Shown: positions 52,739-57,428 of the stretch, piece after piece | Layout: every line of letters begins with the position of its first letter | How positions within the stretch are numbered: the first letter of the stretch is position 1 | Source: Candidatus Poribacteria bacterium | GTDB lineage: Bacteria; Poribacteria; WGA-4E; PCPOR2b | Assembly (NCBI GenBank): GCA_965218095.1 | Contig: OZ244587.1 | Coordinates: 6,016,001-6,080,000 of the forward strand | DNA: 64,000 bases | Direction: 5' to 3' | Notes under the pieces: generated by a model | What the model saw: only the letters and a program-made list of their open reading frames with translations | The model's database searches: none | Told to the model about the DNA's origin: nothing | Translations under genes and position numbers: made by a program

Positions 52739-53044
52739 TTTCCACCACCTCGCCGGCTAAAGAGTTGCGTGGTCGTCGCCAAATAGCTCGAGCGCATCAA
52801 GATTGTCAACTAAATCGGCGGCAAAGAGCGCGCTTAACGGATCGGATAACCCCACCCCAACTTTAAAATGGTTAATCCAATGAGTATACTCAGCTATAAT
52901 GTGTTGTTGCACCTCGGCGATTGTACAGGTTGAGTTGTCTCGCATCGCGAGAATGCCTTTATTAACCTTTGGTGCTAATTGGTGGGGATGTAGTCTCCAC
53001 AAGGGATATAGAATTTACATATTCTGTTTTCTGTGTTTTGGTGT

Positions 53045-53524
53045 TTACTCTTCCCTCACAAACGTTCCACTTTTGCCGCCCGTCTTTTTGACTAGTCGAA
53101 TATCCGAAATCACCATCTCCCGATCCACGGCCTTACACATATCGTAGACAGTCAAACCAGCGACGGAGACGGCGGTCAAGGCTTCCATCTCCACACCGGT
53201 CCGTCCGACGGTCTGCACCTCTGCCTCGATTTCGACGCGATGTTCCGCTTCGTTGATTGACAGATCGACTTTGACCGAGGTAAGCGCAAGCGGATGACAG
53301 AGGGGGATGAGATCCCCGGTGCGCTTAGGCCCCATGATGCCAGCGAGTCGAGCCACTTCGAGGACATCGCCTTTTGTGAACCCACGCTCGGCGATTAAAC
53401 GGATCGTTTCTGGTTTTGCGGACACATGCCCGCGTGCCACTGCAACCCGCAGTGTTTCCGCTTTTGGTGTCACATCAGCCATACGGGTATGTCCTTTTTC
53501 GTCAAAATGTGTGAGTTTATTCAT
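53045..53524 (-). CDS. moaC: Cyclic pyranopterin monophosphate synthase
   Basis: [41 protein letters not shown]. Confidence 0.98.
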
Positions 53525-53646
53525 TTTTGCTTTCTCTCCACAACCGAATCATTCAGAGGAACGTCGACCACAAAAAGCCTTTCCTCACACCCAATGAAGA
53601 GTTTGTCTGACTCATGGATTGAATAATAGACCAATGTTCATGGTGA

Positions 53647-53769
53647 TTATGGATTACTGTAATTTTCATCAGACTCTACCTCCTCAACCACCGCCGTCAC
53701 CCAATCAAACTGCGGCTTAAGCGCGGGATAAAGATTTCGATAAATCTGATAGTATTCCTCATAGATCTT
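53647..53769 (-). pseudogene. xylB: Detached C-terminus of xylulokinase
   Basis: KIYEEYYQIYRNLYPALKPQF joins in frame to DNVKIY at 55981 when the IS1595 element is removed. Confidence 0.92.
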
Positions 53770-53789
53770 CGCGCTTATAAGGTTTAGGC

Positions 53790-53818
53790 TTGCAAGTTTT
53801 GTGTAAATTTGATACAAT
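53790..53818 (+). promoter_or_regulatory. Transposase promoter overlapping left IR
   Basis: TTGCAA-N17-TACAAT with extended TGn. Confidence 0.65.
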
Positions 53819-53857
53819 ATAGGCATCAAACCCTTATGAATAAAGGAGTTGAGATGA

Positions 53858-54739
53858 ATGAACTTGTTTGATGCTGTAGAACGATTTTCTGACCAAGAGA
53901 GTTGTATTAAACACTTAGAAACTATCCGCTGGGGTGGCAAACCTGAGTGTCCATATTGCGAAAGTAAAAAGGTTGCACCGAAGAATGAAGCTAGCATAAT
54001 TGGTCGTTGGAATTGCCATACTTGTAAGTCAAGTTTCAATGTGTTACAGGGAACGATATTTCAAGGAACACAGATTCCACTTCAGAAGTGGTTTATGGCT
54101 ATCCTGTTAATGAACGATGCGAAGAAAAGCCTATCAAGTTGTCAAATGGCTCGTCATTTGGACTTAACGCAACCCTCAGCTTGGTTCATGATGAAACGAA
54201 TCAGGTCTGAGATGGGTAGAAAGGGCAAGGTTTTACTGAGAGGAATTATTGAATGCGATGAAACCTACGTGGGCGGTAAGCCCCGACGACGAAAAGACAA
54301 GGACGGGAACTTGCCTCCACCGAGCAAGCGAGGTAGAGGCACGAAGAAAACGCCCGTTATCGGTGCTGTTGAACGGGCTGGGAATGTTGTGGCGCGTGTA
54401 GCTACGAGTTTGAGTCGTAAGGGCGTTTTGGGGTTCATCAAAGGCGTTATTGAGAAGCCGAAGGATTCAGTTCTAATGACAGATGAGTTCTCATCGTATG
54501 AGGCGGTTGATGGGCTCATGCCTCACCATGTCATCAGACACAAGAACTGGCAGTACGTGGACGGTAATACCCACACAAACACGATTGAAGGGTTCTGGTC
54601 GCTGGTGAAACGTGCGTTTCATGGTACACATCACCACTACAAGCATGTTTCGCTCTACATCGCTGAGGCGTGTTACAAGTACAACAACCGGAAGAACCGG
54701 AACATCTTCAAGAAGTTTATCAGGGAATGCTTTGTGTAG
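53858..54739 (+). CDS. IS1595 family transposase
   Basis: Zn ribbon CPYC..CHTC, GTIF..T.IPL.KWF, ECDETYVGG, TDE, NTIEGFWSLVKR, Y..E..Y.YN.R. Confidence 0.97.
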   Translation: MNLFDAVERFSDQESCIKHLETIRWGGKPECPYCESKKVAPKNEASIIGRWNCHTCKSSFNVLQGTIFQGTQIPLQKWFMAILLMNDAKKSLSSCQMARHLDLTQPSAWFMMKRIRSEMGRKGKVLLRGIIECDETYVGGKPRRRKDKDGNLPPPSKRGRGTKKTPVIGAVERAGNVVARVATSLSRKGVLGFIKGVIEKPKDSVLMTDEFSSYEAVDGLMPHHVIRHKNWQYVDGNTHTNTIEGFWSLVKRAFHGTHHHYKHVSLYIAEACYKYNNRKNRNIFKKFIRECFV

Positions 54740-54777
54740 GGTGGGAAAACCTCTGGAGACTCCATAGAAGGATTAGA

Positions 54778-54972
54778 TTACACTATTTCCAACCTTTTGA
54801 AAATGGTTGTAATTAGTGTGTAGTCATTTTTAAGTAACTGAATTGCAACTCTTAAATCTTCTACGGTTGCAGTAGAGGTAAATAACCTCTCTTCAATTCG
54901 GTGGGTTTTATCAGCATGTTTTTGTAGATGTTCTTTAACACGTTGAATATCCACCTTCCTTTGTGATGACAT
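54778..54972 (-). CDS. Small hypothetical cargo protein (64 aa)
   Basis: RBS AAAGGAGG. AT-rich and enclosed by an inverted repeat. Confidence 0.65.
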   Translation of the reverse strand: MSSQRKVDIQRVKEHLQKHADKTHRIEERLFTSTATVEDLRVAIQLLKNDYTLITTIFKRLEIV

Positions 54973-55103
54973 AACATCTGCCTCCTTTCTGAGTCATATT
55001 TTCAGAGGTTTTCCCATAAGGGAGTGTCCGGTGGGAGCCGGACACTCTAGCAACAAAATATCAGGGAGTGCTTTGTGTAGCACCCCCTGATATTGCCTAA
55101 GAG

Positions 55104-55214
55104 TTATTGCTTAGGCGTAGCCGTATAAGGACTGCTATACGGCGTTTGATTACCCTTACGTTTAGCGATTTTGAGTACGATAAACGTAAAGGTTTTGCGT
55201 ATTTTTATAAACAC
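55104..55214 (-). CDS. Putative 36-aa basic peptide
   Basis: AAAGGAGG RBS then GTG. MFIKIRKTFTFIVLKIAKRKGNQTPYSSPYTATPKQ, translated by hand. Confidence 0.4.
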   Translation of the reverse strand: MFIKIRKTFTFIVLKIAKRKGNQTPYSSPYTATPKQ

Positions 55215-55341
55215 GATAATCCCTCCTTTCATTGGAATAAGTCGTGATGCAGAGGGTGTTATCAGCAGTTGTCCGTATATGTGGACTTACAAGCGTGCCG
55301 TCTTTACGCCTGTAAGACTTGATGTATTTGATGCGTGGCAT
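55162..55341 (-). CDS. Putative 59-aa basic protein with YRRKDGTLVSPHIRT motif
   Basis: AAAGGAG RBS then ATG. Below the ORF-track cutoff and translated by hand. Confidence 0.6.
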   Translation of the reverse strand: MPRIKYIKSYRRKDGTLVSPHIRTTADNTLCITTYSNERRDYRVYKNTQNLYVYRTQNR

Positions 55342-55406
55342 GGGGGGTCTCCTTTGCCATGTTGTGGCGGTGGGGGTGCTATAACACCCCCTCGCCTGTT
55401 TTATGT

Positions 55407-55847
55407 CTATCTCATGTGCAATCTTCTAGCAACATTTCGGAGGGTTGTTTCGGTTTGCCCAAATCGTTCCTCCATTTGGGCATAACGCCCCTCTATACTA
55501 TCTATTGACTTGATGACTGCTACATGAGTTGCAAGGGTAGTTGTCATGTACCTGTCCATTCTCGTTACTGACTGTTGAAAAGAATCAAGTTTCTTGTCAA
55601 TATCTTCAACAGGTACGGTTTTCTTCGCAGTTGCATCTCTAGTTTTCAGATTCTCTGCGATGTTGGTAAGCTCTACCCTTCTTAAATTGACGACTTCTTC
55701 TTTCAGTTGTTTTGCTTCATCTCTGAAGTCTATGAAGGACTTTCTGATACTATACAAATCGTCACTACTGGGAATGTGTTTCCAAATGAACTTTCCAGCA
55801 GCAATGATAATGAGTATATCCGCTACTACACTAAGAAAATCACTCAT
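55407..55847 (-). CDS. Cargo protein: N-terminal membrane anchor plus coiled coil (146 aa)
   Basis: FLSVVADILIIIAAGKFIW followed by heptad-rich helices. RBS AAAGGA. Confidence 0.75.
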   Translation of the reverse strand: MSDFLSVVADILIIIAAGKFIWKHIPSSDDLYSIRKSFIDFRDEAKQLKEEVVNLRRVELTNIAENLKTRDATAKKTVPVEDIDKKLDSFQQSVTRMDRYMTTTLATHVAVIKSIDSIEGRYAQMEERFGQTETTLRNVARRLHMR

Positions 55848-55931
55848 TGGGGTGTCCTTTACTTTGGCGAGGAAAGGTAAAACAAGCCAACGATTTAATA
55901 AACTTCAGAATCACAGGCTTGTAACACCCCA

Positions 55932-55960
55932 ATAATATCACATATTCAAAGAATCTGCAA
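55932..55960 (-). promoter_or_regulatory. Inward cargo promoter overlapping right IR
   Basis: TTGCAG-N17-TATTAT with extended TGn on the minus strand. Confidence 0.6.
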
Positions 55961-57428
55961 GCCAATTATTTATAAATGCGTAGATCTTTACGTTGTCAGG
56001 AATCGGTTGCGTCGTTGACGTAATCTTGACGATCTCATTCGCCGCGCTCTCAACACTGTCGTAAACTCCCGTGCCGACGCCCGCGAGAATTGCCGCGCCA
56101 AATGCGGGGCCTTCGGCGATGTTGATTGTGACCAACTCGGCGTTATAGACATCGGCTTGGATCTGCCGCCAAAGCGGACTCCGCGCCCCACCGCCGGTGG
56201 CGCAGATCTGCTCGATCGGAACATCCAGTTCACGAATAATCTCCAATGAGTCCCGCAAGACGTAGGCGACGCCCTCCATCACCGATCGAACCAGGTGCGG
56301 CTTGCCGTGCCGTAGTGTCATACCGAAGAACGTCGCTTTGGCATTCGCATCCGCGTGCGGCGTCCGTTCGCCGGTGAGGTACGGCAAGAAAATTAAGCCC
56401 TCGCTGCCGACGGGCGCTTCCGCTGCTTCTCTGGTCAAAATCTCATACGGATCGACGCCCTCGATTTTTGCCGCTGCAACCTCATGGTCACCTAAACTAT
56501 CGCGGAACCAGCGAAATGCCCCCCCGGCTGAAAGCACCACGCCCATCAAATACCATTTATGCGGCGCGGAATGGCAAAAGCTGTGCGCTCGCAAGTTCAA
56601 GTCAACCTTGGCTTCATCGGTATGCGCAACGATTGCCCCTGATGTCCCAACACTCGCTGAAACCCGTCCTGCTTTGACAATCCCGTTGCCGACAGCGCTG
56701 CAAGCGTTGTCCGCCCCGCCCCCAACGACTGACGTTTCCGCCCTGAGTCCCGTCAATTCGGCGACCTCGGCGGTAATCTTTCCGCAGACATCAACCGATT
56801 CGTACACGGGCGGCAGGAGGTCCGAATCGATATCGAGTTTACGCAGCACTTCCTCAGACCAGCGGCGATTCCGCACATCAAACAGGAGCGTCCCTGCGGC
56901 ATCAGAAACCTCCGCGGCGATTTCTCCCGTCAAGCAGAAGCGGACGTAATCTTTTGGGAGGAGTATCGTTGTGGTTTTGTCCAGGACTTCCGGCTCATTA
57001 TCTCGAACCCAGATCGCTTTCGGCGCAGTAAATCCCTCGAGTGCAGGGTTGCATGTGCTTTGTACCAACAGGTTTTCGCCGACAGTCCCTGTGATGTAGC
57101 GGCATTGCTCAGTTGTTCTCACATCGCACCAGAGGATCGCCGGACGCAGCACGCGACGTTCGCCGTCCATCAGCACCAGGCCGTGCATCTGCCCGGAAAG
57201 CCCCAATCCCTTGATCTCGTCAGGCAAAACCTGCGATTCGGCAAGCACCCTTTGGATGGATTTCACTATTGCCTGCCACCAGTCCTCGGAGTCTTGTTCC
57301 GCCCATTTCGGTTGAGGCGTGTGCAGCGGATACTCCTCTAACGCACTCGCGTGGAGTTTACCCGCTTCATCAACGAGGATGGTTTTTGCACCTGTTGTTC
57401 CAACATCAATTCCGATGAGATATGTCAT
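55938..57428 (-). CDS. xylB: Xylulokinase, C-terminally truncated by the transposon
   Basis: GIDVGTT, SGQMHG, LWCD.RT, LPKDY, GGGADN, GTSG, YLTGERTPH, GGGARS. The last 13 aa are IS-derived. Confidence 0.92.
   Translation of the reverse strand: MTYLIGIDVGTTGAKTILVDEAGKLHASALEEYPLHTPQPKWAEQDSEDWWQAIVKSIQRVLAESQVLPDEIKGLGLSGQMHGLVLMDGERRVLRPAILWCDVRTTEQCRYITGTVGENLLVQSTCNPALEGFTAPKAIWVRDNEPEVLDKTTTILLPKDYVRFCLTGEIAAEVSDAAGTLLFDVRNRRWSEEVLRKLDIDSDLLPPVYESVDVCGKITAEVAELTGLRAETSVVGGGADNACSAVGNGIVKAGRVSASVGTSGAIVAHTDEAKVDLNLRAHSFCHSAPHKWYLMGVVLSAGGAFRWFRDSLGDHEVAAAKIEGVDPYEILTREAAEAPVGSEGLIFLPYLTGERTPHADANAKATFFGMTLRHGKPHLVRSVMEGVAYVLRDSLEIIRELDVPIEQICATGGGARSPLWRQIQADVYNAELVTINIAEGPAFGAAILAGVGTGVYDSVESAANEIVKITSTTQPIPDNVKIYAFINNWLADSLNM

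Follow-up and report, generated by a model that had tools for sequence, protein, structure and literature searches.

The 64,000-nucleotide window analyzed here (Candidatus Poribacteria bacterium, contig OZ244587.1, positions 6,016,001 to 6,080,000 of the forward strand) carries at 53770-55980 an insertion sequence (IS) of the IS1595 family, a 2211-bp element whose passenger genes and hairpin-rich right half are the subject of this report. The element lies between two exact copies of an 8-bp target site duplication (TSD), TAGATCTT, at 53762-53769 and again at 55981-55988, and it ends in 25-bp imperfect inverted repeats (IRs), IRL at 53770-53794 (plus strand, with the core GGCTTGCAA) and IRR at 55956-55980 (minus strand), which match at 18 of 25 positions; the original prediction, made from the letters alone, had drawn the same boundaries, TSD, and repeats. 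The insertion site is the 3' end of a sugar-kinase gene (FGGY-type, xylulokinase-like) on the minus strand, and removing the element and one TSD copy in silico regains a 520-aa FGGY-type kinase open reading frame (ORF). The kinase gene is interrupted 37 codons before its end, with its parts at 55938-57428 and 53647-53769, and the truncated ORF reaches 13 codons into the element. The G+C content of the element is 0.43, versus 0.51 in the window.

Nine full copies of the element are present in the 6.35-Mb genome, with a single nucleotide polymorphism (SNP) among them. Target duplications are exact and 8 bp long at six of the copies, exact and 9 bp long at two, and imperfect at one, and the three passenger genes described below (orf146, orf59, and orf64) are identical in all nine, between the same ends. 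In contigs of a sponge metatranscriptome, the element is bordered by other flanks, and the junctions fall exactly at 53770 and at 55980/55982. Taken together, nine copies with their own duplications, one SNP, and contigs that leave at the element ends indicate a recently active transposon that moves whole: the entire 2211 bp is transposed as one unit, making 8-9-bp target duplications. The internal parts of the element match nothing in the genome outside the IS copies and two relatives.

The transposase gene (53858-54739, plus strand) encodes 293 aa with an N-terminal zinc ribbon followed by an IS1595 DDE domain. Its product matched Pfam DDE_Tnp_IS1595 (PF12762; E = 1.6e-34, 119.6 bits, cut-off 27) and NCBIfam transpos_IS1595 (NF033547; E = 1.4e-53, 181.9 bits, cut-off 75), and residues 12-57 matched Pfam Zn_ribbon_IS1595 (PF12760; E = 3.6e-08, 33.7 bits, cut-off 25.4). 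DDE domain, zinc ribbon, IRs, and 8-bp TSD are all present, and the element belongs to the IS1595 family, as first proposed. A promoter-like site facing inward from the left end (53790-53818, plus strand, TTGCAA-17-TACAAT with a TG) lies 5' of the transposase gene; it scored 9 of 12 and is the sole sigma-70-like site called by the scanner in the region, and its -35 box, supplied by the IRL core, sits within the conserved GGCTTG core of the inverted repeat.

At the mirror position in the right end, a second inward promoter-like site (55932-55960, minus strand, TTGCAG-17-TATTAT with a TG) likewise has its -35 box inside the IR. The prediction that each IR supplies an inward promoter agrees with the scanner call at the left end; on the right the site is present but weak and not called. 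Right-end promoter scores of four of the seven elements of this group with minus-strand cargo were reached by 0-0.3% of shuffled sequences; these four strong inward promoters (in L062, L067, L125, and L131, all relatives of the element) each lie 5' of minus-strand cargo. For six elements with plus-strand or no cargo, the best right-end score was reached by 5% of shuffles.

Between the right promoter-like site and the first passenger gene lies a structured leader of about 80 nt (55848-55925, minus strand), in which an ACAAGCC/GGCTTGT stem is followed by TTTTA, and which is conserved in the genome G058 and in two degenerate relatives. The 100-nt leader fold has a z score of -4.9, and a local stem of the leader pairs with the orf146 Shine-Dalgarno site. 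This site is predicted to be mostly paired for all six transcript starts tried, with a mean unpaired probability of 0.14-0.18 in native versus 0.05 in read-through transcripts. Since the predicted pairing holds whatever the RNA start, expression of orf146 may need a trigger; fold-back inhibition of orf146 by read-through transcripts was dropped as a main idea because the predicted difference is small. BLAST of the leader against genomes of the order gave matches in this genome and in G058 only. As a DNA pattern, it had one true match (the G058 contig) out of 33 in genome_contigs, and none of its six matches in metagenomes was true. Five unrelated Nitrospirota metagenome-assembled genomes (MAGs; loci L085, L086, L108, L110, and L112) share a 120-nt stretch that contains the leader pattern by chance; this stretch is a conserved gene of those MAGs and is unrelated to the element. 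A motif, GGGGTG(T/C)TA, and its complement occur repeatedly (55846-55933, 55252-55262, 55381-55392, and 55078-55088): besides the leader and the terminator stem, they are found where orf146 begins and both ahead of and within orf59. The two resemble a Shine-Dalgarno/anti-Shine-Dalgarno pair.

The first passenger gene, orf146 (55407-55847, minus strand), encodes an orphan protein in which three long helices come after a hydrophobic one at the N terminus; here and below, the membrane character of cargo proteins was read by eye from translations. Its structure model is all-helical but of low confidence, with a predicted local distance difference test (pLDDT) score of 56, too poor to compare with known folds. 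A set of 5.8 billion proteins held only orf146 itself, a 99%-identical variant, and the protein P0002 (69% identity), which is near-identical to orf146 in the first 76 residues and diverged beyond them, with indels that keep the frame. Searching 1.84 billion representatives with HMMER/phmmer added P0009, an 85-aa protein with 48% identity over residues 5-73, and two coiled-coil giants that we regard as noise. No orf146 relative was present among 133 pattern matches in genome_contigs, an alignment of orf146 used on metagenome_contigs turned up none among 231, and the gene was not found in the 158 other genomes of the order. By our own reading, two of the three SNPs that RNA contigs show over orf146 fall on third codon positions, and the third is the D88G substitution of the 99%-identical variant.

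The second gene, orf59 (55162-55341, minus strand), encodes a small basic peptide of 59 aa whose N-terminal 28 aa contain a RKDGTxVxxHxRT motif that is also found in a 223-aa host protein. The 61-aa protein P0006 is the intact form of orf59 and continues with the remainder of the host-protein motif; the orf59 C terminus is rearranged in 9/9 copies. A metatranscriptome variant has 110 other nucleotides in place of the 169-nt hairpin-rich segment at 55092-55260 (hairpins at 55120-55143 and 55152-55193), with the joint at 55091-55261 in all four RNA runs. This variant, together with the intact P0006, indicates that the C terminus of orf59 was overwritten by the hairpin-rich block in this genome. 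On the minus strand within the block (55104-55232), AAAGGAGGG is followed by a GTG that opens a 36-codon basic frame running through three hairpins; an overlapping 42-aa frame from an ATG (55104-55232) is the one in the ORF listing. The host protein (G000:C1:2047608-2048279) has GGYHFH and YYRKDGTYVRPHYRTTPDGNPYNN motifs, then a long helical tail, and falls into no Pfam family.

The third gene, orf64 (54778-54972, minus strand), encodes 64 aa behind a AAAGGAGG ribosome-binding site (RBS), is convergent to the transposase gene, and ends 39 nt from the transposase stop. It has a close relative in P0004 (89% identity), and elements in the genomes G011 and G010, whose transposase is 55% identical, carry related small genes in the same place and orientation. 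With orf64 as a phmmer query, the G011 and G010 proteins came top among 2757 ORFs (E = 2.9e-4 and 1.1e-3), and a profile built from these two proteins only returned orf64 at E = 2.8e-8, its best other match among the 2757 ORFs. In 7/7 G010 and G011 copies checked, an orf64-like gene follows closely behind the transposase gene, and the family occurs in 4 of the 159 genomes of the order; in G009, an orf64-like sequence stands alone, with no transposase within 1.5 kb. The protein is modeled as a two-helix hairpin (pLDDT 85.5), and the model found no fold in the PDB at E <= 0.001, the best matches being generic helical hairpins. The original prediction listed four minus-strand ORFs, each with its own RBS. 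AAGGA or AAAGGAG(G) does precede orf146, orf59, and orf64, and these three appear from their protein-level relatives to be coding, but the 36-aa ORF at 54935-55045 (minus strand) starts at a GTG inside a hairpin without an RBS and is probably spurious.

Minus-strand RNA of 55000-55420 (421 nt) folds at -162.2 kcal/mol, versus -100.2 ± 5.7 kcal/mol for shuffled sequences (z = -10.9); none of 100 shuffles folds as well, and about 9-11 stems lie inside, so that the dense run of hairpins seen earlier stands. Between the orf146 stop and the orf59 RBS is a hairpin with a GGGGGTG/CACCCCC core (55366-55396, minus strand; -31.1 kcal/mol, z = -5.0). Further along are a hairpin that we call hairpin 2 (GCCTAAG...CTTAGGC, 55095-55116), a terminator-like 16-bp hairpin with a T-rich tail (55057-55094), which the scanner called as a minus-strand terminator, and, 5' of the orf64 RBS, a 10-bp GC-rich hairpin (GAGTGTCCGG/CCGGACACTC, 55022-55047, minus strand). 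A 14-bp perfect inverted repeat surrounds orf64, with arms at 54742-54755 and 55003-55016. In six of six intercistronic units examined, a stable hairpin lies 5' of an AAAGGAG site; the stems measure 8-19 bp and differ from one another in sequence and length, and the hairpin sequences are conserved only among close relatives. Rfam gave no match on either strand of 53000-57000 at E up to 1.

One of these hairpins has a counterpart at the end of the transposase gene. In the relatives L033, L063/L064, and L047, the transposase gene terminates within a hairpin of 14-16 bp: the last codons of the gene make up the left arm, and the stop codon falls in the loop. An alignment of eight such stop-codon hairpins has 14 pairs, with compensatory changes at three. 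Four lineages carry an insertion immediately behind the transposase stop, and a second copy of the final part of the gene follows beyond the inserted DNA; in all four, the hairpin persists beside the cargo and is lost at the real gene end. Here the repeat is 22 nt: the first copy (54718-54739, plus strand) contains the stop codon and is where the transposase gene truly ends, and the second (55059-55080, 95% identical) forms the plus-strand left arm of the 55057-55094 hairpin, the two being 341 bp apart with orf64 between them. The repeat is 37 nt around an insert of about 1.7 kb in L021, 39-43 nt around about 0.4 kb in L062, and 28 nt around about 0.55 kb in L067. Each repeat matches the gene end of its own lineage, and the insertion events therefore look independent. 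Insert-free forms are represented by L033 and by an RNA contig that runs from 54739 straight into the right arm. We read the recurring duplication as selection for a hairpin where two convergent units meet, with long repeats being lost again; a targeted insertion mechanism may also lie behind it.

The transposase family is present in 106 of the 159 genomes of the order, and its members were compared for cargo. Delimiting 37 relatives by IRs and an exact 8-bp TSD confirmed L062 only, so pairs of copies were compared instead. The closest relative, L033 (G058), is a 1.69-kb element whose transposase has 79% protein identity to ours; 133 nt of its right end are 89% identical and its transposase DNA is 75% identical, while the ORFs between are unrelated. 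In L033, the stop codon in its hairpin loop is followed by another hairpin and a basic ORF of 41 aa and then, behind a hairpin of 19 bp, by an ORF of 125 aa with a signal peptide and membrane segment (by eye); the leader and right end come last. Two degenerate relatives in this genome, L021 and L022, keep the leader, the stop-codon hairpin, hairpin 2, and the GTGTCCGG hairpin, which corresponds to the 10-bp hairpin before orf64, and carry yet other ORFs between these parts. In L021 (G000:C1:5095000-5099600), the transposase is frameshifted and the plus-strand cargo includes a 70-aa ORF that reads as a membrane anchor joined to a helix, two copies (95% identical) of an 83-aa ORF, and a repeat protein of 293 aa. 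Paralogues of the repeat protein lie elsewhere on the chromosome, near 0.69, 1.17, 1.36, and 1.38 Mb, and an IS left-end fragment adjoins one of these. L022 (G000:C1:2550800-2553800, minus strand) has two tandem right-end leader modules, each before its own small ORFs, and a full inverted repeat closes the outer module only.

More distant relatives repeat the plan. In both L062 (G038; 2.5 kb, 67% identity, duplication TAACAAAA) and L067 (G018; about 3.35 kb, 61% identity), a strong promoter points inward from the right end and is followed by a long structured leader and a lipoprotein-like first gene, beyond which hairpin-plus-AAAGGAG units precede small ORFs. Elements delimited by copy pairs in nine other genomes measure 1178-3034 bp, five of the nine having more than 0.9 kb of cargo, which comprises a 472-aa DNA methyltransferase and secreted metalloprotease-like, lipoprotein-like, membrane, and small basic proteins. 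The methyltransferase-like gene belongs to L123/L124 (G145, 2457 bp), where it lies on the same strand as the transposase; this element occupies at least 15 places in its genome, and a comparison of two copies gave 100% identity. Two cargo families occur in more than one element (the 125-aa L033 protein and a 128-aa L126 protein, E = 4e-11; the 41-aa L033 and 67-aa L126 proteins, E = 2e-7), and cargo-free relatives of 1.18-1.43 kb exist. In 8/8 elements read, the gene closest to the right end appears by eye to encode a membrane, lipo-, or secreted protein. Hairpins and right-end signals are kept around different cargo, so that the outcome named in the original prediction as its refutation did not occur. 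Of the proposed two-promoter expression platform, the right-end promoter and leader, the stop-codon hairpin, and the hairpin-RBS junctions are indeed retained while cargo is swapped, but the right promoter in this copy is weak.

The element is a transporter IS (tIS): genes without a part in transposition lie inside its IRs and move along. As far as the excerpts of PMC3129680 and PMC7986276 go, IS elements with passenger genes were defined as tIS on the IS1595 family, a definition that PMC3129680 attributes to Siguier, Gagnevin, and Chandler (2009); the basic architecture had therefore been described, although the original prediction knew of no such account. Our element shares with these tIS a zinc-ribbon and DDE transposase, IRs, an 8-bp TSD, and extra genes moved as a unit. 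It differs from tIS as those excerpts describe them in four respects: the right end gives the passenger side its own conserved promoter-like site and leader, a small accessory gene (orf64) is conserved, hairpin-plus-RBS junctions part the genes, and, in its group, the transposase 3' end is repeatedly duplicated around inserts. A literature search, which covered neither the 2009 tIS paper nor ISfinder, returned no description of the leader, orf64, the hairpin-RBS junctions, the envelope cargo, or the hairpin rebuilding. The repeated insertion after the stop with duplication of a hairpin arm and the conservation of orf64 in distant relatives look new.

Regulation of the IS10/IS50 type combines a promoter in the element end, antisense RNA, and fold-back inhibition. 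The present element resembles it in having a -35 box in the terminal repeat, RNA structure that can hide a start, and convergent or antisense transcription; here, however, the structured leader precedes a passenger gene rather than the transposase, and fold-back inhibition is not supported, the predicted pairing being near-equal in native and read-through transcripts. Bacterial operons also contain intercistronic stem-loops, namely, mRNA stabilizers of the repetitive extragenic palindromic (REP) type or partial terminators. The GC-rich stems found here right after a stop and before the next RBS, in 6/6 units, are similar, but unlike REP-type stems they belong to a mobile element and not to a dispersed host repeat.

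We conclude that this is probably an active tIS of the IS1595 family in a sponge-associated bacterium, with a passenger operon driven from its right end. The right IR, mirroring the left, would supply the -35 box of an inward promoter from which the operon is transcribed through the structured leader. Its order would be orf146 (membrane-anchored, helical), a hairpin, orf59 (damaged here), a run of hairpins, and the 16-bp terminator-like stem. That stem would be the old transposase stop-codon hairpin, now at the meeting point of the convergent transcription units, where it most likely shields the transposase gene from antisense read-through of cargo transcripts; the intercistronic hairpins would most likely be partial terminators or 3' stabilizers that set the ratio of first-gene to later-gene product. 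Past the terminator, orf64 would be a conserved accessory gene of the IS group rather than accidental cargo; our guess is that its target is the element, for instance through control of the transposase or of the convergent transcripts. From the first genes after the right-end promoter in the eight elements read, the clade would appear to ferry small envelope proteins.

Several observations weigh against this interpretation. The right -35 box matches the consensus at three of six positions and the scanner makes no call; the promoter score of 9.5 is reached by 11% of shuffled right ends, and that of L033 by 41%. The predicted pairing of the orf146 Shine-Dalgarno site makes it hard to see the right end as a simple expression platform. 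The stop-codon hairpin shows little covariation (term 0.23), and coding constrains its left arm in any case. Pairwise BLASTP of orf64 against its distant relatives found nothing, so that their homology depends on the profile and phmmer scores. Thirteen cargo proteins (orf146, orf59, orf64, and 10 from relatives) gave nothing above noise against Pfam, PHROGs, PADLOC, and NCBIfam; functional statements on the cargo are inferred throughout, and no cargo protein has a known family or fold. Transcription is favored by contigs from four RNA libraries, which cover the 3' part of the transposase gene, orf64, the hairpins, and orf146 (we give no weight to the lack of cover at 55148-55233 in two runs or to the low cover over the first 200 nt of the element), but these contigs come from one sponge metatranscriptome study, carry no strand and no transcript starts or ends, and may include carried-over DNA.

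Other explanations fit parts of these data. In eight of eight relatives read, a small hydrophobic or membrane first gene is followed by a small basic or helical ORF, an order that would suit an addiction or toxin-antitoxin system in which the membrane protein (orf146 or its counterparts) is toxic, a small protein, the leader, or an antisense RNA neutralizes it, and loss of the element is penalized; the predicted sequestration of the orf146 Shine-Dalgarno site would also be at home in such a system, as in tightly repressed toxin genes. We consider this unlikely, given that the 13 cargo proteins had no significant match to curated toxin, antitoxin, or defense models in Pfam, PADLOC, and NCBIfam, that nine identical copies are tolerated, that the putative partner orf59 is rearranged in every copy while orf146 is kept, and that the first genes include lipoprotein-like or secreted-looking proteins of 125-235 aa, which are not toxin-like. 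Cargo unrelated between relatives speaks against phage exclusion or defense, in which a membrane-anchored coiled-coil protein would block infection or injection and the IS would spread by protecting its host, as does the lack of any match by DNA or protein in phage and plasmid collections; the latter also led us to reject the cargo as one contiguous phage fragment. What recommends exclusion is that the language-model look-alikes of orf146 are phage membrane-anchor and coiled-coil proteins, in clusters with DUF2746 (16% of one cluster) and DUF2730 (another), and that PADLOC gave weak coiled-coil matches (best E values 0.0017-0.0019). The look-alikes are weak (score 0.90 for orf146, 0.82 for orf64), 0.90 being reached by 4-10% of shuffled proteins, and the PADLOC matches fall on coiled-coil stretches of giant proteins; we hold exclusion to be very unlikely.

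It is also conceivable, if decidedly unlikely, that the right half is chiefly a device made of RNA, in which the transcript from the right end, with its hairpins, acts as a long antisense or attenuator over the transposase, most small ORFs being incidental. Cargo and transposase are convergent, the structure is extreme (the z score of -10.9 above), the stop-codon hairpin is conserved and re-created after inserts, and a hairpin block overwrote the C terminus of orf59, all of which would fit; yet orf146 and orf64 have protein-level relatives, the three genes each have an RBS, hairpin sequences are not conserved beyond close relatives, and the cargo-free relatives indicate that such a device is not needed for transposition. 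The suggestion of a structured RNA with embedded peptides is not supported, there being no Rfam match and at least three ORFs that look coding. The other layout first proposed, a miniature cassette array, fares no better. Integron arrays likewise hold small unrelated promoter-less genes and imperfect palindromes read from one end promoter, and if the hairpins were recombination sites at which a site-specific recombinase exchanges cassettes, unrelated genes between conserved junctions and the recurrence of inserts at one point, the loop of the stop-codon hairpin, would follow; GCCTAAG...CTTAGGC also recalls, presumably only superficially, attC core sites. But the element contains no integrase or other recombinase, its only enzyme ORF being the DDE transposase (the search did not extend to intI in the wider genome), its hairpins vary in sequence and length (8-19-bp stems) and do not form one attC-like site family, and its inserts are flanked by duplications of the transposase 3' end that vary from 22 to 43 nt, unfit for precise site-specific exchange. 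We therefore rejected the cassette array, and any integron-like reading seems extremely improbable.

The active tIS with a right-end-driven operon thus remains our preferred reading. Beyond it, a Poribacteria-wide IS1595 clade could be a modular, integrase-free gene shuttle with fixed flanks, in which envelope genes are exchanged, entry is through the hairpin loop, and orf64 serves as regulator. The right-end promoter and leader and the stop-codon hairpin would then be parts for expression and insulation, and every insertion would restore the hairpin through duplication of the final 22-43 nt of the transposase gene. Taken as a whole, this larger proposal is doubtful.

If our reading of the element is right, it would show how a plain insertion sequence becomes a small gene shuttle: an element with fixed end signals for expression and insulation, a conserved accessory gene, and cargo slots refilled in different lineages. 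The rebuilding of the stop-codon hairpin would amount to a natural experiment, suggesting that the hairpin matters where genes converge. For annotation, elements that share this transposase and measure 1.2 to 3 kb are best delimited by their ends, and their small ORFs are worth keeping. The cargo carried in these sponge symbionts appears to consist mostly of small membrane or secreted proteins, and with nine copies of the element, the present host would have a high dosage of orphan genes.

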